From assembly GCF_055900595.2 (NCBI RefSeq), contig NZ_CM148325.1: DNA of 64,000 nt, one strand, 5' to 3'. Position numbers and translations under genes: made by a program. Under the pieces are notes generated by a model. That model saw only the letters and a program-made list of their open reading frames with translations, made no database searches and was not told the DNA's origin. Positions 11,236-23,511 of this stretch are shown here, in pieces (position 1 is the stretch's first letter; each line of letters begins with the position of its first letter).

Positions 11236-11352
11236 GAAACGGAGCGGCACCTCTTTTAACCCTTGAAGTCACTGCCCGTTTCGAGAGTTTCTCAACTCGA
11301 ATAACTAAAGCCAACGTGAACTTTTGCGGATCTCCAGGATCCGCTTTTTTTT
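11236..11352 (+). ncRNA. oxyS: OxyS small regulatory RNA with intrinsic terminator
   Basis: Sequence GAAACGGAGCGGCACCTCTTTTAACCCTTGAAGTCACTGCCCGTTTCGAGAGTTTCTCAACTCGAATAACTAAAGCCAACGTGAACTTTTGCGGATCTCCAGGATCCGCTTTTTTTT matches oxyS; the 3' hairpin GCGGATC...GATCCGC is followed by a U-run. Confidence 0.92.
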
Positions 11353-11391
11353 ATTCTACAGGCCCACAGCAAGAGAGCCTGATAGTAACAG

Positions 11392-12675
11392 TTACTCAAT
11401 CCGATCTTTGACAATAAAGAAGTAACACAGCGCCCCGGTGAACGTCACACAGGCCGCGATAACCAGCGCCAGATTAAACGAGTGCGTGGTATCCACTACC
11501 CAACCGGTTACGATCGGAGCAAAGGAAGCAAAAACAAAACTGCCAAAGTTTTGAATCCCGGCGATGGAAGCCACTTTTGTTTCTGACACCATCACCTGCA
11601 CCAGTCCCCATGCAGATGTTCCCGCGAAATGCACGCAGAACAGCGCCATTGAGATAAACGCTACAGCCTGGGCTGGCGAGGAGGATTGCACGACCAGCAA
11701 CGTGCCTAATGCCGACATCATCAAACCGCAGACAATAGCCGTTTTACGCGTCTTCGCCAGGTCGTAGCCTTTTTTCGCCAGCCGATCGACAACAATACCG
11801 TTAACCCACATCCCGACCGCCGCCGCGAGGAAAGGAATCGCCGCCACCCAACCGGTTTTCGCCAGACTGAAGCCTTGCTCGGCTTGTAAATAACCGGGTA
11901 ACCACGCGATGTAGAGCCAACCGGTATAATTGACGCCAGAGAAACCTAAAATCATCCCCCAGGTTGTCCGATGCTTAAACAGCGCCAGCCACTCGCTAAA
12001 TTGTAATTGTGGACGCGGTTTAACCGGCGCGGAGAGATAGGTCCGTTCTTCGTCGGTCAGGACAAACTGCGCCCGGTTGCGATACCACGCGTACCAACAG
12101 ATCCCAACCAGAATCCCCGCCACGCCGATGATGACGAACATTGCCCGCCAGCCCCATGCCAGCTGCATCAATACAAGAGCAGGAGGCGCAATAGCCTGAC
12201 CGATAACGGTAGATGAGTTAAAAATCCCCAGCGCCGTGCCGCGTTCTTTTTGCGCATACCAGTCGGTGATCGACTTTACTCCCGCAGGCATAAATGGCGC
12301 TTCGCCAATACCCAGACCGATACGCATTAAAATAAAGTGGCTAAAAGAATTAACCATTCCTGTTAATGCCTGCATTAATGACCAGAATATTAAGCCTGCA
12401 CCTAAAACTATTCGTGGGCCAAAGCGGTCTAGCAAAATACCGGAAGGGAGTTGTGAAAAACCATAAGACAGAGAAAATGCAGAAAGCAAAACGCCAAATT
12501 CTGTCGCCGATAATCCTAACTCGCCACGAATCGCTTCGCCTGCCACGCTCAATGACGAACGGTCGAGGAAATTAACGATCCCCGCCATAAATAATAAAAC
12601 CAGCGTTACTGTCTGAATACGACGAATCCGTTGCGGTTTATTACCCGCAACACTGGTTGACACATCAACGTCCAT
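11392..12675 (-). CDS. MFS transporter, anion:cation symporter family (sugar-acid permease, DgoT/GudP-like)
   Basis: 427-aa ORF with about 12 predicted TM segments and an N-terminal FLDRSSLSVAG motif, reminiscent of hexuronate/aldonate ACS-family permeases. Confidence 0.75.
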   Translation of the reverse strand: MDVDVSTSVAGNKPQRIRRIQTVTLVLLFMAGIVNFLDRSSLSVAGEAIRGELGLSATEFGVLLSAFSLSYGFSQLPSGILLDRFGPRIVLGAGLIFWSLMQALTGMVNSFSHFILMRIGLGIGEAPFMPAGVKSITDWYAQKERGTALGIFNSSTVIGQAIAPPALVLMQLAWGWRAMFVIIGVAGILVGICWYAWYRNRAQFVLTDEERTYLSAPVKPRPQLQFSEWLALFKHRTTWGMILGFSGVNYTGWLYIAWLPGYLQAEQGFSLAKTGWVAAIPFLAAAVGMWVNGIVVDRLAKKGYDLAKTRKTAIVCGLMMSALGTLLVVQSSSPAQAVAFISMALFCVHFAGTSAWGLVQVMVSETKVASIAGIQNFGSFVFASFAPIVTGWVVDTTHSFNLALVIAACVTFTGALCYFFIVKDRIE

Positions 12676-12741
12676 TTTTAGCTCCTTGAGCGGAATTAAT
12701 CGATTTGCTGACTATTCAGAAAATAATTAAGCGAACCGTTA

Positions 12742-13956
12742 TTACCAGTTCCACAATGTGCCATCTTCCAGTCGTGCGACGGGGAGATACGCCGGGTCAT
12801 ACGGATATTTCGCCGCCAGTTTCTCATCGAAAGAAATACCCAGCCCCGGTTCATCGCCTGGGTGCATATAACCTTCATCGAAGCGCCAGCTGTGCGGGAA
12901 GACTTCAAGCATTTGTTCGGAATAGCCCATGTACTCCTGAACACCAAAGTTTGGCACCCAGAGGTCAAAATGCAGCGCCGCCGCATGACAAACAGGCGAT
13001 AAATCTGAAGGGCCATGCGAACCGGTACGTACCTGATAAAGCGATGCAAAATCGGCAATCCGTCGCATCCCGGTAATGCCGCCTGCATGGGTAATCGTCG
13101 TGCGAATATAGTCAATCAGCTGCTCTTCGATTAACTGCTTGCAGTCCCAGATACTGTTAAACACTTCACCGACCGCAATCGGCGTCACAGTATGCTGGCG
13201 AATCAGACGAAAACATTCCTGGTTCTCGGCAGGCGTCGGATCTTCCATCCAGAACAGGCGGTAATCCTCTATGCTCTTCCCAAAGCGTGCCGCTTCGATA
13301 GGAGTCAGGCGATGGTGCATGTCATGCAACAGATGTTCGTTAAAACCGAACTTATTACGCACCGCTTCAAATAACTTCGGTGTAAAATCGAGATACTTTT
13401 CTGAAGACCACAACTGCTCTTCCGGCCACAGGCCTTTGGTTGCCGGTTCATACGCCAGTCCTTTGCCCTTCGCCAGGCCATAAGTGGTTTGCATACCCGG
13501 TACACCGCACTGCACACGAATCGCCTTAAAGCCCATCTGCTGGTGCTTTGCATAGTCTTCAAGGACTTCATCAATCGTGCGCCCGGTGGTGTGGCAATAA
13601 ACCATCACGCCTTCACGAGAAGCCCCACCAAGCAGTTGATACAATGGCATATTTGCCGCTTTGGCTTTGATATCCCACAACGCCATATCAATGGCAGAAA
13701 TGGCCGACATCGTGACGGGGCCACGTCGCCAGTAAGCACCTTTATAAAAGAATTGCCAGATATCTTCGATACGACTGGCATCGCGGCCAATTAATTGTGG
13801 ACAAAGATGATCTTTCAGATAAGAAGCGACCGACAATTCGCGACCATTTAATGTGGCATCTCCCAATCCACAAAGTCCGCTTGCAGTGGTTATTTTAAGC
13901 GTAACGAAATTACGTCCTGGGCAAGTAACAAAAACATCTGCAGCAATAATTTTCAT
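12742..13956 (-). CDS. enolase-superfamily dehydratase, RspA/ManD-like (putative D-mannonate/aldonate dehydratase)
   Basis: ORF 12742..14016; from the internal Met ([24 protein letters not shown]...) it is 404 aa and aligns along its whole length with the E. coli starvation-sensing protein RspA as I recall it. Confidence 0.8.
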
Positions 13957-14343
13957 TATTGCAATCTCCTGTGTTGTAAATAGACGCTTCAAACTTAATT
14001 TTACGCCTACTACCATACAAGAGAGAAAGAGCGATTATTCAACCGTGATCACATTAAAAATAAAAATTTCCACCGAGGAACAAAAATATCCTCAAATCTC
14101 ACCTACACTATTAACTACCATCGTTAAAACAACGTGTTAAATAATCACATAACAAATTCCTTTAAGGAAGGGAGTTATAACAACAACAAAAGATAATCAT
14201 ATTTTACTTAATTCAATACGTATCGATAGGTTTATTTAAAAAGGATTTTTCGGAATGAGAGATGAAAAGAAGATACACAAGCAGGAAGAAATACGATTAA
14301 TATTAGTTGCGGTAAGGGTAGCCGTTCCTCCCTTCCGCAACCC

Positions 14344-14444
14344 ATTAACCGTTGAAGTCACAGACTATTTCAGGCATTTCTCAACTCAAAATAACGACAG
14401 CCAACGTGAACTTTATGGCTCTCCAGGATCTGCTTTGTTTTCCA
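14344..14444 (+). other. degenerate duplicate of the oxyS 3' half (relic, not a functional gene call)
   Basis: Roughly 75-80% identity by eye to oxyS 11262..11352 on the same strand (shared blocks TTAACC, TTGAAGTCAC, TTTCTCAACTC, AGCCAACGTGAACTTT, CTCCAGGATC). The terminator stem is eroded. Ends exactly at the kinase stop codon. Confidence 0.6.
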
Positions 14445-15923
14445 TCAAACAACGGAGCTCAGCGCACTGGCTACCTGTTTAAAGCGAGCAAACCGTCGCC
14501 TGAGCATGTGTGCTTTTTCTACATTCGGTTCAAGACGAATCACGTTGAGCTGCGTAGCCTTCATGGCCTGTTTGAATCCAGAATAAGCCCCTCCTCCTAC
14601 TGCCGCACACATTGCAGCCGCTCTACAACCTGACTGTTCAATATCGACAATTTCAAGAGGCATTTTGCTGGCATCACAAAACATCTGCATCCAGATTCTG
14701 GAATGCGTTGGCCCGCCAGAGAAACGAATCGTTTGCAATGACTTATCAATCTCAATAAGACGGTCCTGATGCAACAAATGAGAAAAGACAATGCCCTGAT
14801 AAATAGCGTACACCAAATCTTCTCTTTTATGATGCCCACACAGCCCCAAAAATCCCCCGCTTAATGCCTCATGGTAATTCGAGCCAAACAACCACGGGAA
14901 AAAGAGAATATCATTCTGCTTCTCATACCCTCGTTCCACCCACTCATTAATCACCCGATAACTGTCAGGAAGATCCGGTAAAAATTGCTGCAAGAACCAT
15001 GTCAAATTACTGGCTGATGTAGGGCTTCCCTCATGGGCGAAAAATGTACCTGGAATGCTAAATTTCCCCCATACATAGGGATAATCAGAAGGAATAATGC
15101 GATCAAAGATTCGCGTTGCAATTGACCAGGTGCCAGCAACCGCACTTAACGTTGTACTGTCATAGATGCCAGAAGTGAGCGCCGCACCAACGACATCAAA
15201 AACACCACCAAAAACAGGCGTTCCGGCGAGAAGCCCACATTGGCTGGCTGCTTCAGATGTCACAAACCCAGCTAAATCAGCGGAGCCAATAATATCGGGA
15301 ACCTTACCCGCAACTTCCTTAATCTCAAATAGGCGAAAAAGTTCAGCATCATAAGCACTGGTATATTGATTATAAAAATTACTGCCTGAAATATTGGTTT
15401 CTTCACAAGCCAGTTTGCCAGTAAGCCGTGAACGTATGTAATCATGAACCATCAAAATGGTTCCGATGCGGCCATAATTGTCAGTCTCATGTTTTTTCAA
15501 CCAATGCAATAGTGCTACAGGGTGCGATGGCCAGAGCTGTTGCAGACTACGGTGATAACTTTCGCGGTCAATTCCTTGTTCTTTCCAGCTTGCAACCAGT
15601 TGTTGTGCGCGAGAATCAGAGGAAACAATGCCGTGTCGTAAGGGCTTACCTTGCCGGTCGAGCAGGTACAAACCTTTACCATGAGCAGAAAAACTGATGC
15701 CATCAATCTGACTCGCAGTAATATTGTTATCTGACATCGACAGTGAAATGACCTGGCACGTTACCTTCCATAACGCCTCCATGTCGCGTTCGCAAAAACC
15801 AGGACATGGGCTTAACAGAGGTAACGCCTGCGAAGAGACACCTATTTCACGTCCTTCTGCCGTATAAATTCCCGCTTTGGTTTCTGTACCACCTAAATCG
15901 ACACCAATAAAATACCGCTCCAT
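14445..15923 (-). CDS. FGGY-family carbohydrate kinase, L-xylulokinase (LyxK)-like
   Basis: 492-aa ORF with an N-terminal GVDLGGT phosphate-binding motif; global resemblance to E. coli LyxK/SgbK. Confidence 0.8.
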   Translation of the reverse strand: MERYFIGVDLGGTETKAGIYTAEGREIGVSSQALPLLSPCPGFCERDMEALWKVTCQVISLSMSDNNITASQIDGISFSAHGKGLYLLDRQGKPLRHGIVSSDSRAQQLVASWKEQGIDRESYHRSLQQLWPSHPVALLHWLKKHETDNYGRIGTILMVHDYIRSRLTGKLACEETNISGSNFYNQYTSAYDAELFRLFEIKEVAGKVPDIIGSADLAGFVTSEAASQCGLLAGTPVFGGVFDVVGAALTSGIYDSTTLSAVAGTWSIATRIFDRIIPSDYPYVWGKFSIPGTFFAHEGSPTSASNLTWFLQQFLPDLPDSYRVINEWVERGYEKQNDILFFPWLFGSNYHEALSGGFLGLCGHHKREDLVYAIYQGIVFSHLLHQDRLIEIDKSLQTIRFSGGPTHSRIWMQMFCDASKMPLEIVDIEQSGCRAAAMCAAVGGGAYSGFKQAMKATQLNVIRLEPNVEKAHMLRRRFARFKQVASALSSVV

Positions 15924-15939
15924 GATCCCTCCTTAGTTT

Positions 15940-16803
15940 CTAAATATTATCCCAGCCGGCAAAGCGCATTTTCTCTTCAATCCATTGACGTGCATGAATA
16001 ATTTCTAATAGAGGTTCCGTCGCTTTTTCTGTCCACATTTCTATCAGAAACGTTCCGCGATAATTAAGATTACGCAGGATCTTAAATAATTTAATAAAAT
16101 CTACACACCCTTCACCAAAAGGAACGTCACGAAATTGCCCTGGAGAATCAGGCGTTACTGGGTACGTATCTTTAAGATGGATTGCGGCAATTCGATCAAT
16201 CCCCTTTACCAGCTCACTTTCCAGTTCATTACCCCATGCGGTCAGATTGCCAACATCCGGATAAACGGTAAACCAAGGGGAATTAATTTTTGTATCCAGG
16301 ACTTTCCATTTACTAATAGAATTAATAAATGGCGTATCCATGATCTCTACAGCACACATAACTTGTGCCGCTGCGGCCTGTTCAGCTGTCCAGGCCATCG
16401 CATCTTCAAACCAGGCGATAGTTTCTTCATTCTGCGGCTCATAATAAACGTCATAGCCTGCCAGTTGGATTGTTCGAATCCCCAAATCCTGCGCCAGGCG
16501 TAACGCCTTCAACATAATCGTACGTGCCTGCTGACGAGTATCTCTATCATGGCTACCAAATGGAAAACGCCGGTGAGCAGACAGGCACATTGTCGGAATA
16601 CGGATCCCCGTTTGCTGAATGGCGCTAATAAGCTCCATACGCTCGGTGAGCGACCAGTCCAGGCGGGCGAGTCGTTCATCATTCTCATCTACCGACATCT
16701 CAACAAAATCAAAACCGCAAGATTTAGCCAGGGCTAGTTTCTCTACCCAACTGGTATTCCTGGGTAGCGCTTTTTCATAAATACCTAACGGGTGGCGTCG
16801 CAT
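15940..16803 (-). CDS. L-ribulose-5-phosphate 3-epimerase (UlaE/SgbU family, TIM barrel)
   Basis: 287-aa ORF; the N-terminal LGIYEKALP...FDFVEMSVDE...RLDWS...CLSAHRRFP pattern matches UlaE/SgbU closely. Confidence 0.82.
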   Translation of the reverse strand: MRRHPLGIYEKALPRNTSWVEKLALAKSCGFDFVEMSVDENDERLARLDWSLTERMELISAIQQTGIRIPTMCLSAHRRFPFGSHDRDTRQQARTIMLKALRLAQDLGIRTIQLAGYDVYYEPQNEETIAWFEDAMAWTAEQAAAAQVMCAVEIMDTPFINSISKWKVLDTKINSPWFTVYPDVGNLTAWGNELESELVKGIDRIAAIHLKDTYPVTPDSPGQFRDVPFGEGCVDFIKLFKILRNLNYRGTFLIEMWTEKATEPLLEIIHARQWIEEKMRFAGWDNI

Positions 16804-17879
16804 TATTTTCCCTCACGAGTGATCAATTGTTGTTGAAAGATTTTCCGGCTCTTATTCATGTCACGCTGCAACTGCCATTTTTGTTTGATGAATTTAAATG
16901 CCAGTGCGGCGATCAATGTGATCCCCCATACCGCCAGATTGAAATGCAAACTAAGTCCCAACAGACTAAGGCCGGTAGCAATAACCTGAAGCACAAGTAA
17001 GGCACAAAAAACATGACTGACTTTACCCGCCCCACCGAATGGATCTGTGCCTCCCAATACAATTGCAAGAACCGTCAAGAGCAGATAGGAATCGCCATAG
17101 CCCATACGCGCCGAATTAAATCGCGCGAGCATAATAAGACCTGCTAATACACACAACATGCTGGATATAGCATATATAGCAATTAATACGCGGTCGGTGC
17201 GAATACCGCTAAACCATGTGGCGTTAATATTACTGCCACACATATAAATCGTTTTTCCCGTACGGGTTTTGCCGAGGAACAGAGCTAAAGCAACGGTGGT
17301 GACGATAAAAATTATCATCGGTACTGGGATCCCCATGATAACTTCAGACCCAATACTGCGGACTACTGGTGGCATACCACTTAAAGCTGCCCCCTTAGTC
17401 AGGTAAATACCGATACCACTAATAATGGTCATGCTACCCAATGTGACCAAAATAGGGTGAGCGCCTATATGAGAAATAATTGACCCAGTAATAGCTCCAA
17501 TGATGATGGCAATAAGCATCGCCCCGACAATAGCCAGGAAGAGCCAAAACAACTGACTACCTGTAGATGCATCTGCGGGTACATATTGAATCAACAGCCA
17601 GGCCATAAACAGGCTGGTCAGATTCGCAGTACCGATGATTGCCAGATTGAGCCCCCCGCTCAACATGGGTATAAACATCGCAAACGTGAGCAACCCAAGC
17701 TCTGGCAATTGAAATGCAATGCTCAGAAAAGTATTGCCGGTGAAAAAACGCCCCGGCATTACCAGACTAAATAACACCACCGCAATAAAACATATTGATA
17801 ATAAGCCTGAACTGGTACCATCTAGTGGAAAAAATATCCGCTTGTTCATTTCGATCCTCCCGTTAGACGAAACCAACAT
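16803..17879 (-). CDS. monosaccharide ABC transporter permease (CUT2 family)
   Basis: 358-aa polytopic membrane protein immediately downstream of a paralogous permease. True start may be the internal Met (MNKRIFF) at 17849. Confidence 0.75.
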   Translation of the reverse strand: MLVSSNGRIEMNKRIFFPLDGTSSGLLSICFIAVVLFSLVMPGRFFTGNTFLSIAFQLPELGLLTFAMFIPMLSGGLNLAIIGTANLTSLFMAWLLIQYVPADASTGSQLFWLFLAIVGAMLIAIIIGAITGSIISHIGAHPILVTLGSMTIISGIGIYLTKGAALSGMPPVVRSIGSEVIMGIPVPMIIFIVTTVALALFLGKTRTGKTIYMCGSNINATWFSGIRTDRVLIAIYAISSMLCVLAGLIMLARFNSARMGYGDSYLLLTVLAIVLGGTDPFGGAGKVSHVFCALLVLQVIATGLSLLGLSLHFNLAVWGITLIAALAFKFIKQKWQLQRDMNKSRKIFQQQLITREGK

Positions 17880-18855
17880 CAGTTTCTTTACGTTTTTTGT
17901 AATGGGTCACACAAATCGCCGAGACAATAACCACTCCAATAACGATATTGACGAAATAACTCGAGATGCCAATCAAATTAAGGCCGTTTTTAAGAATACC
18001 GATAAGAAATACGCCCATAAGCGTACCAATGACCGTACCACGTCCGCCTGATAAACTGGCACCGCCCAATACCGCTGCAGCCAGCACATCCAACTCTCCG
18101 CCAACCAATGCATTCGGCACAACTTCACTCATACGGTAAGCTTGCAGCATTCCACCAATTGCTGCAGCGGCACCAAGATAACCATAAGCAAACAGATAAA
18201 TTAGCGACACCCGAATCCCAATACGTCTTGCTGATTCGGTATTCCCTCCCACGGCATAAAGCTGACGCCCAATATGGGTTTTGTTCATTATCATCCACGT
18301 CAGAAATGCCATTCCCAGCATAACCACTAACGGTAATCCGATCTGGTAATCTTCTCCGCCAAATTCAAAACTCAGGAAAGAACGCTGCGTAATCCACCAA
18401 TCCGGTAAATCGTAAATACTGTGGCCATTAGTCAACCACATCAACATACCGAACAGTAGCGACTGCATACTAATCGTAATGATGATGGAAACGACATTAA
18501 GGTAATAAATAAGAATAGCGTTTATCAAACCAAAAATGATGCCAAGAAAAACAGCAAACACCAGACAGAAAAATGGATTTGATAGCGTTTCATTAAGCAG
18601 TAACGACGCCACAACATATTGCACAACCGAAGCTACTGCTGCAAAAGAGATATCAATTCCGCCAGTAACCAATACGACAAATAATCCGAGGGCGAAAATA
18701 CCCGTTACGGCATAACTTTCCGAGAGATCGAGCAAGTTCTGTATTGATAAAAACTCATCGCTCATGATGGAAAAAAATACCAGCATGAGAACAATGACCC
18801 ATCCTAACCAAGCTTCGACTGAACGAGGAAACCGCAGCCGCATAAAGCTAACCAT
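17863..18855 (-). CDS. monosaccharide ABC transporter permease (CUT2 family)
   Basis: 330-aa polytopic membrane protein; start overlaps the ATPase stop by 8 nt (translational coupling). Confidence 0.75.
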   Translation of the reverse strand: MVSFMRLRFPRSVEAWLGWVIVLMLVFFSIMSDEFLSIQNLLDLSESYAVTGIFALGLFVVLVTGGIDISFAAVASVVQYVVASLLLNETLSNPFFCLVFAVFLGIIFGLINAILIYYLNVVSIIITISMQSLLFGMLMWLTNGHSIYDLPDWWITQRSFLSFEFGGEDYQIGLPLVVMLGMAFLTWMIMNKTHIGRQLYAVGGNTESARRIGIRVSLIYLFAYGYLGAAAAIGGMLQAYRMSEVVPNALVGGELDVLAAAVLGGASLSGGRGTVIGTLMGVFLIGILKNGLNLIGISSYFVNIVIGVVIVSAICVTHYKKRKETDVGFV

Positions 18856-20365
18856 TAATCACCTCCGCCAACTGCTGCTCGGTATAATTCGAAGGCAACA
18901 GCTCATTAATAATCTTTCCGCGCTTCATATGAAAAATACGATCGCAGTTATAATAAGCTTCTGGTGCTTCATCAGTAATTAATATCACTGAAATACCCAC
19001 ACCTGAAAGCCGATGAATAAGCTGGTAAATACTATCTTTTGCGCCAATATCTACACCTACCGTTGGCGCATCCAGAATTAAAACCTTAGGTCGTGTTAAA
19101 ATCCATTTAGCCAGGACAACCTTTTGTTGATTGCCGCCAGATAGCGTTGAAAGTGGATTATTTGGATCGGTGACTTTAATATCCAAATCCTGGATCCACT
19201 CCTTGACTAAGGTTTCTTTTCGATTTTCATCAATAAACCCCGATGCCGTCTTTAAACGATCCAGAATCGAGAGCACCATATTATCGCTGATAGATTGGGG
19301 TAATACGGCCCCCAGTGTCAGGCGATCTTCTGAAACATATGCTATTCCCAGTTTTACCGCATGCGTGTTGTCTTTAATTGTAACGGGCTTACCTTCCAGA
19401 TAAATATCACCACTATCTGGTCGAGTAATACCGAAAAGACTCAATGCTAATTCAGTTCTCCCCGCACCAAGTAAACCACACAATCCCAGAACCTCGCCCT
19501 GGTGTAGTTTTAGAGAAACATCTTCAAATTGCCCTTTTCTGCATAATTTGTTTAGTTCAAGGACTACTTTGCCTTCAACGCTATTTGGTAGCTTCTTCTG
19601 GTGGACTATAGTTTTTCCGGTCATTAACTCAGTAATATCGCCCGGAGAAAGTTGATTGGCAGCCCACGTTCCAATTATCTCTCCATCACGGATGACCGTA
19701 ATCCGATCTGAAATTTCCTTAACTTCATCAAGGCGGTGGCTAACAAAAACTACGGTAATATTTTTATCGCGTAAGTAATTCACTGTGCGTAGTAATTGAT
19801 TAACTTCTGTACGCGTCAATGATGCCGTTGGCTCGTCCATGATGACTAAGCGGGCATCGGCAATCAGAGCCCGGCAAATCGCGACCTGTTGGCGTTGTGC
19901 AATCGGCAAATGTTGTACTAACGCATCAGGATCGAGATTGAATTGCAGCTCCTGAATTATTTTCTGCGATACATCTCGAAGTTGTTTTTTTCTGTGCAGC
20001 CCTAAATATCCCTTCAGGTTGTATTCAAAAGCGATATTTTCAGCAACAGAAAGATTTGGGAATAAAGAAAGATCCTGATATATCACCTGAATACCCAGTT
20101 CCCGAGCTTTATCAGGAGAAAGACGAGTCCAGGACTTACCATCTATAATAATTTCACTTCCCGAATCAGGGACATAAACACCACACAGCGTTTTGATCAG
20201 AGTACTTTTACCACACCCATTCGCACCAGCAAGACAATGAACCTCACCTTTATTTAAGGTAAGATTGATATTCTTTAGAGCCCTATGGCCACCGAAACTT
20301 TTCGTTAGTGACCTTAGCGTCACTAATGGTTGCTCCGCATTCTTCTCTATAATATGAGGCATCAT
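18848..20365 (-). CDS. sugar ABC transporter ATP-binding protein with duplicated nucleotide-binding domains
   Basis: 505-aa ORF with Walker A GANGCGKST, a second P-loop GLLGAGRTE and the ABC signature LSGGNQQKV; architecture of RbsA/AraG/LsrA-type importers. Confidence 0.85.
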   Translation of the reverse strand: MMPHIIEKNAEQPLVTLRSLTKSFGGHRALKNINLTLNKGEVHCLAGANGCGKSTLIKTLCGVYVPDSGSEIIIDGKSWTRLSPDKARELGIQVIYQDLSLFPNLSVAENIAFEYNLKGYLGLHRKKQLRDVSQKIIQELQFNLDPDALVQHLPIAQRQQVAICRALIADARLVIMDEPTASLTRTEVNQLLRTVNYLRDKNITVVFVSHRLDEVKEISDRITVIRDGEIIGTWAANQLSPGDITELMTGKTIVHQKKLPNSVEGKVVLELNKLCRKGQFEDVSLKLHQGEVLGLCGLLGAGRTELALSLFGITRPDSGDIYLEGKPVTIKDNTHAVKLGIAYVSEDRLTLGAVLPQSISDNMVLSILDRLKTASGFIDENRKETLVKEWIQDLDIKVTDPNNPLSTLSGGNQQKVVLAKWILTRPKVLILDAPTVGVDIGAKDSIYQLIHRLSGVGISVILITDEAPEAYYNCDRIFHMKRGKIINELLPSNYTEQQLAEVING

Positions 20366-20428
20366 AATATTCCTGAATACGACTAAAGGAATTCCGGGTC
20401 AAATTTGACCCGGTGATTTACAGTAAAA

Positions 20429-21433
20429 TTACAAGCCTAGCTTCACTAAACGTCGTGTATTTTCAAGATCGAGCTTTTCTGGATTATCACTATAAATAGT
20501 GTTGTTATTAACCTTGATCTCGCCCATATCACCGATTTTTACACCGTCTTTAATAGGTTCACCGTTCATCATTGCCGTCGCAACCTGGACAAAAACCTTA
20601 CCCGCAATCATAGGGTTTGAAATATATCCCCCATCAATGGCACCTTTTTCGAGTAGCTTAATTCCCTGACCTGGAGTGAAGGTTCCAAAAACGCAAATTG
20701 CATCATTTTTCTTCCGCTTATCAATAGCACGCCCCGCACCAATTGGTCCTTGTGAACCAAATGACATAATGCCTTTAAGATCTTTATATTTAGACATTAA
20801 ATCGTTCGTCGTGCGCATTGAATCATCCACCGACTCAGCAACACCAAAACGATCTTCAACCAACGTCATATTTGGATAATGTTCTTTTTGATAGGCAATC
20901 GCGGCATTGGCCCAGTCATTTACCAAAGGCACAGTCAGACTGCCGACAAACATGGCGTATTTACCTTCTTCGCCCATACACTTCGCCATATCTTTCATAT
21001 GATTGGCACCCATTGTCTGGGTATTTAACAACTCAAAATCCCAATCTGCATTTTTTTGATCTGGTGATTCGTGGGTAATAACTTTAATACCGGCTTCTTG
21101 TGCACGCTTAAGTACAGGTTCAAGAACCTTTGCATCGTTAGGAACAACACCAATAACATCCACTTTTCGTGCAATTAAATCTTCAATCGCCCGAACCTGT
21201 TCAGCTGGATCTGCCGTTGTAGGGCCGACCTGCCATGCATCAACCCCCAATAGTTTTCCTTCATTTTTAATGCCTTGTTCCATCACATTAAACCAGGGAA
21301 TTCCACCGACTTTTACTACTACCCCCATCGTAAAAGGTTTATTCGCTTTTTGTGATGTTACAGTCTGATCAGCCCATGCAGCAGTGGAAGATAATACGGT
21401 AGCAATAAGGCAGGGTAAGATTAATTTTTTCAT
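20429..21433 (-). CDS. periplasmic sugar-binding protein (type I PBP, ABC substrate-binding component)
   Basis: 334-aa ORF with an N-terminal signal peptide (MKKLILPCLIATVLSSTAAWA) and LsrB/RbsB-like fold features; first gene of the transporter operon. Confidence 0.75.
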   Translation of the reverse strand: MKKLILPCLIATVLSSTAAWADQTVTSQKANKPFTMGVVVKVGGIPWFNVMEQGIKNEGKLLGVDAWQVGPTTADPAEQVRAIEDLIARKVDVIGVVPNDAKVLEPVLKRAQEAGIKVITHESPDQKNADWDFELLNTQTMGANHMKDMAKCMGEEGKYAMFVGSLTVPLVNDWANAAIAYQKEHYPNMTLVEDRFGVAESVDDSMRTTNDLMSKYKDLKGIMSFGSQGPIGAGRAIDKRKKNDAICVFGTFTPGQGIKLLEKGAIDGGYISNPMIAGKVFVQVATAMMNGEPIKDGVKIGDMGEIKVNNNTIYSDNPEKLDLENTRRLVKLGL

Positions 21434-21555
21434 CGTAATTTCCTTAAGAAATAGTTCAGGTGTCAGGAAAACTCGATATAATATCGACCTGACTATTTAT
21501 ATAATTTATAATCCCTTAGGCATTGATTAATAATTTAGACAATAAATAACGCCTA

Positions 21556-22365
21556 TTATTTATCAACCTCCACAATGTTTAATTGTGGAAATTGTGTTCG
21601 ATACCGAGTATCTGTACAAACATTAGTCACCAGAATATCGATTTCATCCAGCGTGCATATTTTACTAAATGCATACTGTTCAAACTTAGTGGAGTCGACC
21701 AGCAATATTTTTTGTCCTGACACCTGAAGCATCACCTGTTTAAGTCTGGCATTAATTTCACTGCCATCGCGGACACCATTCCCCAGATTCAACCCCTGGC
21801 ATGAAAAGAAAAAACTGTTGATTTGAAAATTTCGGATCGCACTCTCTGCAACCGGGCCATGAAAATCATCATGTCGCTCAGAATACTCACCACCGATACC
21901 AATAATTCGAACTCGATCACGGCAAGCTAACGCCTGAATTATCCGTAATGAATTTGTAACTACGGTAACATCTATATCGGGAATTTGACGAGCTAAAAAC
22001 CAACAAGTACTACTGTTATCCATTAAAATACAATCACCAGGGTGAATAAATTGCAATGCGGCCTTCGCAATTCTGGCTTTTATATCAGGATTTTCTTCAG
22101 TCCGTTTACGGAATGATTCCGCACGATCGATACTATTATCTTGCCACGCATTATCGGCGAGCATAACCGGAGCGCTATCAGATGAATCCAGAGCGACCGC
22201 GCCACCAAAGCTACGGATTAACTTTTTGTTGCGCTCCAGTACCGTTAAATCCCGACGAATTGTCTCAGGAGACGCTTTAAATAATCGTGATAATTCAGTT
22301 ACCCGCACAGCACCTTGTTTTTGTACATGTGCGCATATCATTTTATGGCGCTCTGCCTGCAACAT
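21556..22365 (-). CDS. DeoR-family transcriptional regulator
   Basis: 269-aa ORF with an N-terminal HTH (VRVTELSRLFKASPETIRRDLTVLE) and a C-terminal DeoR sugar-phosphate-binding domain. Confidence 0.8.
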   Translation of the reverse strand: MLQAERHKMICAHVQKQGAVRVTELSRLFKASPETIRRDLTVLERNKKLIRSFGGAVALDSSDSAPVMLADNAWQDNSIDRAESFRKRTEENPDIKARIAKAALQFIHPGDCILMDNSSTCWFLARQIPDIDVTVVTNSLRIIQALACRDRVRIIGIGGEYSERHDDFHGPVAESAIRNFQINSFFFSCQGLNLGNGVRDGSEINARLKQVMLQVSGQKILLVDSTKFEQYAFSKICTLDEIDILVTNVCTDTRYRTQFPQLNIVEVDK

Positions 22366-22806
22366 AGTATCGGTCCGTTATTATCAAATTAGCATGCTTA
22401 TATAATTAACTGTTCCCTCATAAAATAAAGTGATAGGAATCAAGATTCATTTTATAATTATAATCGCAAACAGGAATGGTGATCTTTATCACAAATTAAA
22501 TTGAGAACACTCTACTATTTGACATTACTTTGAGATATCGGTCACTAAATAAGTCTTATTCTGCCATCTAACGAAAAATTTAAATACAAAAACAAAAATA
22601 ATCGGGCATAGCAATCGCTTCCATTCATGACCGAATACGCCCGAATAAAACCGTTTATACCCACTTATCCTCTTTCGTTGCCTTCTTACATGCCTTGAAT
22701 ATTTTACATTTCTTATATTCAGCGTAATTTAGGAAACATAATTTATGAGCAAAAAAAGCCCAAACTCAAAAGTTAAAGTTTATTTATATAATACATACAG
22801 ATTATC

Positions 22807-23511
22807 GTGGAGTTAAAAATGGATATGCTAAAGGAAAAAGTTCTTGCTGCGAATTTATCATTACCCCTTCATCAGTTAGTGACGTTTACCTGGGGAAATG
22901 TTAGTGGTGTTGATCGCGAAAAAGGTGTCATGGTTATTAAACCTTCTGGGGTCGAATACAGCCAAATGGGCATTGCAGATATGGTGGTAGTGGATTTACA
23001 AAGTGGTGAAGTTATTGATGGACACAGGAAACCCTCTTCAGACACCGATACTCATCTGGCGCTATACCGTGCTTTCCCGGATATTGGTGGTATCGTTCAT
23101 ACCCATTCCCGACACGCCACAATATGGGCTCAGGCCGGAAAAGATCTCACGGCCTTTGGGACAACCCACGCTGATTATTTCTACGGCACTATCCCCTGTA
23201 CACGCCCCATGAAGGATGACGAAATTAATGGACAATATGAATATGAAACGGGGCGAGTGATTATTGAAACGTTCAGACAACGAGAAATATCTCCCGCTGA
23301 CATTCCGGCTGTTTTAGTAAACAGTCATGGCCCCTTTGCCTGGGGAACTGATCCCGCGAACGCCGTGCATAACGCCGTTGTACTTGAAGAAATTGCCTAT
23401 ATGAATCTCTTTACACAACAACTACAGCCCCATCTTACGGCTATTCAACAGCCTCTACTGGATAAGCATTTTTTACGCAAGCATGGTGCCAATGCTTATT
23501 ACGGGCAGTAA
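22807..23511 (+). CDS. L-ribulose-5-phosphate 4-epimerase (class II aldolase fold, AraD/SgbE/UlaF family)
   Basis: 234-aa ORF closely resembling AraD ([74 protein letters not shown]), including the conserved metal-binding His residues. Confidence 0.85.

Follow-up and report, generated by a model that had tools for sequence, protein, structure and literature searches.

Why should an Escherichia coli chromosome carry, beside a permease gene in the spacer between oxyS and argH, a dehydratase gene so similar to rspA, whose usual place is a different locus next to rspB? The site lies in a window of 64,000 nucleotides (contig NZ_CM148325.1, assembly GCF_055900595.2), which is the whole stretch of DNA that was analysed, and an initial annotation had read the pair as a stand-alone module for the uptake and dehydration of aldonates. 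Both open reading frames run on the minus strand, exactly at the coordinates given here:

11236-11345, plus strand: oxyS small RNA gene, full length (Rfam RF00035, 139.5 bits, gathering score 75)
11392-12675, minus strand: predicted MFS sugar-acid:H+ symporter of the ACS family (TC 2.A.1.14), 427 aa, gene 2 of the putative operon
12676-12741, minus strand: manD-MFS spacer, 66 nt, with an AGGAG ribosome-binding site for the MFS gene
12742-13956, minus strand: manD, predicted RspA-type enzyme of the D-mannonate dehydratase subgroup of the enolase superfamily (ManD2), 404 aa, gene 1 of the putative operon

The oxyS gene is the left edge of the variable oxyS-argH spacer, and in comparison with the empty site of the K-12 type homology ends right after the oxyS terminator, the insertion starting where the terminator T-run ends. 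The manD gene starts in RefSeq at the ATG at 13956, with an AGGAG Shine-Dalgarno sequence 9 nt upstream, and a longer open reading frame reaching to 14016 is unused. Between manD and the MFS gene we found no convincing terminator, the sole terminator-like match being a weak 6-bp stem that lacks a T-run (12751-12733), which suggests that the two genes are co-transcribed as a two-gene operon. The operon is already annotated, under the RefSeq names "manD" and "MFS transporter", it is widespread in E. coli and it represents no new pathway. Literature searches for a description of the manD-MFS locus between oxyS and argH found none, and the papers on BEN2908 and 83972 go no further than naming uxuB and rspA.

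The likeness of the dehydratase to RspA along its length, noted in the initial annotation, is in fact complete: all 404 residues of ManD2 (404/404) align with E. coli RspA without a gap at 92% amino acid identity, the genes being 80% identical at the nucleotide level. ManD2 scores above the cutoffs of both the ManD equivalog NF043051 of NCBIfam (731.5 bits against 550) and NF011654 (806 bits against 430), and its closest solved structures are 4IL2, the RspA of CFT073, and 4E4F. The catalytic and metal-binding residues are in place (R147, Y159, D212, H214, E238, E264 and R285), among them the metal ligands expected of the enolase superfamily: D212, E238 and E264 match Asp210, Glu236 and Glu262 in the numbering of 2QJJ and are the same in RspA 4IL2, the offset of +2 fitting an end-to-end alignment of the 404 aa of ManD2 with the 402 aa of the 2QJJ chain. 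In the 2007 work of Rakus et al. the general acid of ManD is reportedly His212, to which H214 corresponds. R147, Y159 and R285 likewise match features of the ManD subgroup, in which beta-strands 3, 4 and 5 end in three carboxylate metal ligands, an Arg at the beta-2 terminus forms a dyad with the general base Tyr159 and Arg283 lies at the beta-6 terminus (PMC4570537, citing Rakus 2007). From its identity to RspA we infer that ManD2 belongs to the ManD-type dehydratases in its activity.

ManD2 and RspA (K-12 b1581; CFT073 4IL2) are alike in their 404 aa length and identical in catalytic and metal residues but differ by 36 substitutions, five of which fall in the active-site loop of the 150-180s (V152I, Q156K, L161M, A162S and L176Q). 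Their surroundings differ as well, rspA lying at the ynfA-rspB site with rspB as the next gene whereas manD lies at the oxyS-argH site with the ACS-type MFS gene as the next. According to Wichelecki et al. in 2014 the RspA class is said to be an inefficient ManD in vitro for which no physiological substrate is proven; ManD2 has Pro316, which we take to be typical of the low-efficiency members. No assay of ManD2 or of its paired transporter was found in the literature.

Sequence similarity, and nothing beyond it, could be taken to mean that the only rspA of the genome has moved next to oxyR. This is refuted by the genome NZ_CP098223.1, which over 26.3 kb matches the window at 99.97% identity and in which the canonical locus rspR-ydfI-ydfJ-rspB-rspA is intact at 2.474-2.480 Mb; the two copies are moreover 20% apart at the nucleotide level, and we give a relocation practically no chance. 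ManD2 is a true additional paralog of RspA. Indeed, among 5426 complete E. coli genomes the manD-MFS pair occurs in 1860, CFT073 being one of the carriers with C_RS23255 as its ManD2, and rspAB in 4909, so that at least 1343 genomes hold both; RspA is thus near-core (90% of genomes) whereas ManD2 is accessory (34%, about a third). NZ_CP098223.1 also carries uxuA-uxuB-uxuR, and UxuA shares with ManD2 the nominal reaction from D-mannonate to 2-keto-3-deoxy-D-gluconate (KDG) but is of an unrelated fold and family. UxuA is a xylose-isomerase-like, Fe/Mn-dependent enzyme that carries the physiological flux in the glucuronate pathway of E. coli.

The extra copy is not a young one. ManD2 is 91-94% identical in amino acids and 77-81% in nucleotides to every RspA, that of E. 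coli included, and in a neighbour-joining tree it makes up a separate clade (100% bootstrap) that is not the sister group of E. coli RspA. As this tree is midpoint-rooted and has no outgroup, we do not take ManD2 to be basal to the RspAs as a whole. A recent duplication of rspA within the genome is ruled out by the 20% nucleotide divergence, a saturated dS (about 2) and the tree topology. The same chromosomal site is occupied in E. whittamii, in the cryptic Escherichia clades and in Citrobacter sp. R56. Compared with the alleles of strain FXCREC004 (L002) the two genes of the window show a dS of 0.10-0.11, which falls among the values of the core genes on either side (0.08-0.19), and a dN/dS of 0.022 for manD and 0.010 for the MFS gene; both are under strong purifying selection. 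A recent horizontal island is ruled out as the source of manD-MFS by a GC content of 0.50-0.51, like that of the flanks, together with the dS equal to that of the flanking core genes.

Could the pair nevertheless be an evolutionary relic, redundant and cryptic, with no current physiological role and in the course of being lost? Some two thirds of E. coli genomes lack it, with examples from K-12, O157:H7 and ST131 among them, an IS1 deletion takes it out in one strain, and in Citrobacter sp. R56 manD is deleted while the transporter is kept, suggesting that the dehydratase is dispensable. UxuA and RspA, already providing mannonate dehydratase in the same cell, make ManD2 redundant and speak against a needed role, and low-efficiency ManDs as a group were reportedly suggested to be relics in the 2014 work of Wichelecki et al. 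Decay does not sit well, however, with the low dN/dS of both genes, with a synonymous divergence like that of the flanking core genes, with two open reading frames still unbroken in E. coli, E. whittamii and the cryptic clades, or with the 5979 member sequences of the protein cluster (90% identity) to which the MFS belongs, and we consider a relic quite improbable.

The neighbouring gene was rightly taken for a sugar-acid permease of the ACS family, to which DgoT, LgoT, ExuT, GarP and GudP belong. Its best NCBIfam match is TIGR00893 (2.A.1.14 D-galactonate transporter, ACS subfamily) with 275 bits, and although this is below the 395-bit cutoff we place the protein in the family since this is the best-scoring one and since it is 56% identical over its full length to LgoT of the same genome. 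It also matches the structure of DgoT (6E9N, E = 4e-57), of which the proton-coupling and carboxylate residues D46, R47, Y79, E133 and N393 are conserved, D38, R39, Y71 and E125 of the MFS aligning with the first four (HMMER alignment to 6E9N), whereas the hydroxyl-contact residues differ (Y44F, Q164T, Q264F and S370G/T, DgoT to MFS). In DgoT, D46 and E133 serve in proton coupling and R47 and Y79 in carboxylate binding (PMC6532931). LgoT (YjjL), an L-galactonate:H+ symporter, and the MFS have in common most of the binding positions defined in DgoT, a Phe equivalent to F266 of LgoT and the HFAGTS motif. They are separate paralogs, however, with Phe in place of Tyr in the MFS at the position of DgoT Y44, and with different partners, the L-galactonate dehydrogenase LgoD for LgoT and ManD for the MFS. 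Our best guesses at the substrate of the MFS are D-mannonate or L-gulonate; in Kluyvera an rspA-MFS-ydfI arrangement without rspB argues against L-gulonate as the sole substrate.

The origin of the pair becomes clearer from other genera. At least 10 further enterobacterial genera have an ortholog of the MFS as a member of their canonical rsp cluster, mostly adjoining rspA, and in Raoultella, Kluyvera, Cedecea, Lelliottia, Siccibacter, Pluralibacter, Atlantibacter and Enterobacter, among others, the orthologs are 82-89% identical in amino acids. The companions of rspA and the MFS gene in these clusters are rspB, ydfJ, ydfI and rspR, and the order rspA then MFS is found in Kluyvera, Lelliottia, Siccibacter and Enterobacter kpr-6. 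The clusters of Kluyvera, Lelliottia and Siccibacter (ynfA, rspA, ACS-MFS, rspB/ydfJ/ydfI, rspR) resemble the E. coli pair in gene order, orientation and promoter motif, with 82-88% amino acid identity for the MFS and 93-94% for RspA. They differ in that the two genes there belong to a larger, regulated cluster at ynfA-dcp, whereas in Escherichia the pair stands by itself at another site, in addition to a canonical rsp cluster that has no ACS-type MFS gene.

The promoter region of manD points to the same relationship, as it keeps an rsp-type core consisting of TGTGATCAC, 23 nt and TCTTGTATGGTAGT. Its elements are:

14009-14024, minus strand: rsp-type promoter/operator core TCTCTTGTATGGTAGT, matching the rspA promoter at its -35 region and RspR box ATACTTGTAT
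14045-14053, minus strand: TGTGATCAC, an element resembling a CRP half-site, 32 nt upstream of the core

The 64-kb window holds a single exact copy of the 13-mer CTTGTATGGTAGT, located 53-65 nt before the manD ATG, and exact copies also precede rspA in E. coli and rspA, MFS and ydfI genes in other genera. With up to 2 mismatches the motif count is not significant by itself (1 found, 0.97 expected), so that the weight of the promoter argument falls on the exact match of the 13-mer, on where it lies and on its recurring elsewhere. The RspR footprint and the ATACnnGTAT box have been described by Shimada et al. 2021 (PMC8249747). In the manD box the right half and the flanking core are exact but the left half reads TCTC against ATAC in rspA, and with the palindrome broken in this way control by RspR is uncertain; a similar left-half variant, [ACG]TTC, precedes MFS and ydfI genes in the rsp clusters of other genera. 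In the window TGTGATCAC stands 32 nt from the core, just as it does in the promoter of E. coli rspA, and TGTGATC recurs at the same position in about 30 rsp-cluster promoters, leading us to infer that TGTGATCAC is a CRP site. The operon would then probably be catabolite-controlled and possibly RspR-controlled.

These comparisons bear directly on the initial proposal, in which D-mannonate or a different aldonate would enter through the permease and be converted to KDG by ManD2 alone, with no functional tie to rsp. The pair has neither a dehydrogenase nor a regulator beside it in E. coli, in strains like CFT073 it lies alone between oxyS and argH, the left half of its RspR box is lost, and a transporter and a dehydratase are chemically enough for D-mannonate. 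In other genera, however, the homologous pair forms part of rsp clusters that include rspB, ydfI and rspR, the promoter core in E. coli is of the rsp type and identical to the variant found before MFS and ydfI genes in those clusters, and the same genome keeps rspB, ydfI and rspR, with which the E. coli pair could still work in trans. Free D-mannonate is moreover, to our knowledge, no recognised environmental nutrient. A self-sufficient module thus appears unlikely to us, and the pairing of the dehydratase with a permease in place of a dehydrogenase is not supported as something new, an orthologous permease being a regular neighbour of rspA in rsp clusters. The regular presence of the MFS in those clusters, together with the retained rsp-type promoter core, suggests instead an old, vertically inherited copy, namely a duplicated or transferred core of the rsp cluster and not a novel stand-alone design. 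We therefore favor, with good though not complete confidence, a two-gene operon that is an ancient extra rspA-transporter core of the rsp cluster, inherited vertically in Escherichia and lost in many E. coli lineages, and acting by a sugar-acid mechanism of the following kind.

Transcription would proceed from the rspA-like promoter with its CRP-like site and variant RspR-box core, and the MFS would import a C6 sugar acid together with protons. ManD2, with Tyr159/Arg147 as the base, His214 as the acid and Mg2+, would dehydrate D-mannonate to KDG, the D-mannonate being either imported directly or derived from L-gulonate by RspB and YdfI in trans. KdgK and Eda would then pass KDG into central metabolism, a step that belongs to the established hexuronate pathway of E. 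coli, and a flux from ManD2 into the KDG pathway would be plausible in its chemistry.

As routine accessory genome of E. coli, already named in RefSeq, the locus itself matters little. Of wider relevance is that the RspA-type "low-efficiency" ManDs across the Enterobacteriaceae are consistently partnered with one LgoT-like transporter and an rsp-type promoter, making the substrate of this transporter a direct route to the real input of the pathway. This leads us to speculate, tentatively and as a somewhat doubtful extension, that the MFS may be the missing high-affinity importer of the "cryptic" rsp pathway, for instance for L-gulonate or D-mannonate/fructuronate, in which case carriers like CFT073 may use an acid that K-12-type strains cannot. 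If this were correct the low-efficiency RspA-type ManDs would have a physiological role and the pair would be a strain-specific niche trait.

Adjoining manD-MFS is a low-GC module of kinase, epimerase and ABC genes, found in 146 genomes compared with 1860 for the pair. As most carriers of manD-MFS are without this module, a functional tie between the two is ruled out; a recent horizontal island is a reading that does fit the module.

The window is a stretch of E. coli chromosome with the gene order trmA, yijD, fabR, sthA, oxyR, oxyS, a variable region, argH, argB, argC, argE and ppc. Over 26.3 kb it is 99.97% identical to NZ_CP098223.1 (strain Z0117EC0005), in which the pair studied here is annotated as ‘MFS transporter’ and ‘manD, D-mannonate dehydratase ManD’. 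The initial annotation had correctly located and described an RspA-like dehydratase (hereafter ManD2) next to a permease, and the features discussed below are:

11236-11345, plus strand: oxyS (Rfam, 139.5 bits)
11392-12675, minus strand: MFS permease, 427 aa, directly after the oxyS terminator
12742-13956, minus strand: dehydratase gene manD, 404 aa, with the RefSeq start
14312-14434, plus strand: degraded second oxyS-like sequence (Rfam OxyS model positions 1-110, 30.1 bits against a gathering score of 75; E = 3.5e-4)
14445-23511: low-GC block next to manD-MFS (GC 0.43)

The 66-nt spacer between manD and the MFS gene has a ribosome-binding site but lacks a convincing terminator; the two genes are probably co-transcribed. 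The 3' end of the MFS gene lies 46 nt from the oxyS terminator, convergent with oxyS (11346-11391, 11326-11344). No good minus-strand terminator was found past the MFS gene toward oxyS, so that read-through from manD-MFS would be antisense to OxyS.

On the NCBIfam ManD equivalog NF043051 (cutoff 550 bits) ManD2 reaches 731.5 bits, and it aligns with E. coli RspA over 404 of 404 residues, gap-free, at 92% identity; its nearest solved structures are 4IL2 (RspA of CFT073) and 4E4F. It retains all the defining residues of the ManD subgroup, namely the base dyad R147 and Y159, the enolase-superfamily metal residues D212, E238 and E264, which are the Mg2+ ligands, as well as H214 and R285 (roles from PMC4570537, citing Rakus 2007). 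From the RspA of the matching genome it differs at 36 positions, 5 of them in the 150-180s active-site loop. Pro316 is present, a residue reportedly typical of low-efficiency ManDs according to the 2014 work of Wichelecki and colleagues and to UniProt annotation. The dehydratase had been taken for an extra copy, the alternative being a relocation of the only rspA of the genome. It is indeed an additional paralog, since NZ_CP098223.1 carries an intact rspR, ydfZ, ydfI, ydfJ, rspB, rspA cluster elsewhere, at 2.474-2.480 Mb; the same genome also carries gntP, uxuA, uxuB and uxuR. Of 5426 complete E. coli genomes, 1860 have the manD-MFS pair and 4909 have rspAB, so that at least 1343 must have both. 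In CFT073 the pair lies between argH and oxyR and is identical to that of the window at 402/404 (ManD2) and 426/427 (MFS) residues. It is an ordinary, already annotated and widespread accessory operon of well-known families.

The top family match of the permease is the D-galactonate-transporter (ACS) subfamily TIGR00893, at 275 bits and thus below the cutoff of 395 bits. It matches the DgoT structure with E = 4e-57; with LgoT, the L-galactonate:H+ symporter encoded in the same genome, it shares 56% identity. When aligned with DgoT it keeps the proton-coupling residues D46 and E133 and the carboxylate/hydroxyl ligands R47, Y79 and N393, whereas it has F, T, F and G/T in place of Y44, Q164, Q264 and S370 (residue roles from PMC6532931). 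LgoT likewise has Phe in place of Q264, and both proteins carry an HFAGTS motif. These comparisons make the permease a sugar-acid importer that is coupled to protons and has a pocket like that of LgoT.

An orthologous permease (82-89% aa identity) regularly forms part of the canonical rsp cluster, between ynfA and rspR-ydfG-dcp, in Raoultella, Klebsiella, Pluralibacter, Enterobacter, Citrobacter, Cedecea, Atlantibacter, Kluyvera, Lelliottia and Siccibacter. It nearly always adjoins rspA there, and the rspA-then-MFS order of the window recurs in Kluyvera, Lelliottia, Siccibacter and Enterobacter kpr-6. E. coli's own rsp cluster is without this permease. The pairing of an RspA-type dehydratase with this ACS permease is therefore the ancestral enterobacterial arrangement, and the oxyS-argH module of E. 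coli is best read as a second copy of the rspA-permease core. Thus the extra RspA-like copy and its ACS permease neighbour reported in the initial annotation both stand, but the reading built on them is supported in part, a stand-alone aldonate module being the less likely interpretation. A contig labelled ‘Chryseobacterium sp. 18061’ (CACSKA010000003.1) holds a typical enterobacterial rsp cluster, with an RspA that clusters (100% bootstrap) with the RspA of Citrobacter sp. 18056; this record probably bears a wrong label or includes contaminating sequence.

ManD2 is 91-94% identical in protein and 77-81% in nucleotide sequence to every RspA examined, that of E. coli included, with a saturated dS of about 2. 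The Escherichia ManD2 sequences form a separate clade (100% bootstrap), not sister to E. coli RspA, in a neighbour-joining tree of ManD2 and RspA without outgroup, which does not fix the rooting. Between the window and strain FXCREC004, whose arrangement is like that of CFT073, dS is 0.098 for manD and 0.109 for MFS, values that fall among those of the core genes on either side (oxyR 0.119, sthA 0.082, argH 0.163, trmA 0.187), and dN/dS is 0.022 and 0.010, respectively. The GC content of the pair (0.50-0.51) is that of its flanks. E. whittamii and cryptic Escherichia clades share the order argH, manD, MFS, oxyR. At the same oxyR-argH site Citrobacter sp. R56 (NZ_CP069159.1) has an intact rsp-type promoter and MFS gene (92% aa) with an internal-deletion remnant of manD (comparison stretch L027, 6693-6878), of which only 32 codons at the start and 33 at the end can still be recognised. 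The pair is absent from the K-12-type, O157:H7 and ST131 records inspected. Taken together, these data argue that the module is old and vertically inherited, that selection maintains it in its carriers, and that it has been lost repeatedly.

Upstream of manD lies the exact 13-mer CTTGTATGGTAGT (14009-14021, minus strand; one occurrence in the window), which also precedes rspA in E. coli and Kluyvera and occurs three times in Raoultella, before MFS, rspA and ydfI. A further 32 nt upstream stands TGTGATCAC, in the window and in E. coli rspA alike, with TGTGATC at the same position in about 30 rsp-cluster promoters. The shared 13-mer, the spacing and the recurring motifs indicate that the ManD2 promoter is homologous to the rsp type. 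RspR represses rspA, with a 31-bp footprint centred on ATACnnGTAT (Shimada et al. 2021, PMC8249747). The rspA promoters read ATACTTGTATGGTAG, those of MFS and ydfI [A/C/G]TTCTTGTATGGTAG, and those of ManD2 TCTCTTGTATGGTAG in 4/4 Escherichia sequences, which depart from the published palindrome in its left half. The module has no regulator gene within it; RspR control is plausible, if unproven, and CRP control may be inferred from the TGTGA motif.

As to substrate and flux, we infer that the permease would import a C6 sugar acid with protons and that ManD2 would dehydrate D-mannonate to 2-keto-3-deoxy-D-gluconate (KDG). The D-mannonate could be imported directly or come from L-gulonate via RspB and YdfI in trans, a conversion that Wichelecki and colleagues reportedly described in 2014. 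KDG would then be processed by KdgK and Eda, an established E. coli pathway.

The low-GC block forms a pentulose-type module of its own, with genes for an FGGY kinase, an L-ribulose-5-P 3-epimerase, a four-component sugar ABC importer (two permeases, one ATPase, one substrate-binding protein), a divergent AraD-type L-ribulose-5-P 4-epimerase and a DeoR regulator; by its gene content it resembles an L-xylulose/pentulose-type utilisation system. It occurs in 146 of the 5426 complete genomes, chromosomal in all, and adjoined manD-MFS in 3/3 records inspected; most manD-MFS carriers are without it. The degraded second oxyS-like sequence sits between the upstream region of manD and the FGGY kinase gene, which suggests that the block was acquired together with DNA that flanked the oxyS of another taxon. 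In one E. coli strain (NZ_CP086627.1; comparison stretch L033, 3258-6013) an IS1 insertion/deletion eliminated manD together with parts of MFS (5') and of the FGGY kinase gene (3'). Over some 210 nt upstream of manD, the window (13957-14300) and FXCREC004 (comparison stretch L002, 11858-12200) share about 97% identity; farther out they are AT-rich and only loosely similar. Each of the three arrangements (manD-MFS alone, manD-MFS with the low-GC module, empty site) has its own argH-proximal junction. The differing junctions and this upstream divergence mark the oxyS-argH spacer as a recombination or indel hotspot. Between sthA and fabR, CFT073 (comparison stretch L036, 20897-23422) has an additional insertion of two genes, for an M20 aminoacylase and a citrate-proton symporter, that is absent from the window.
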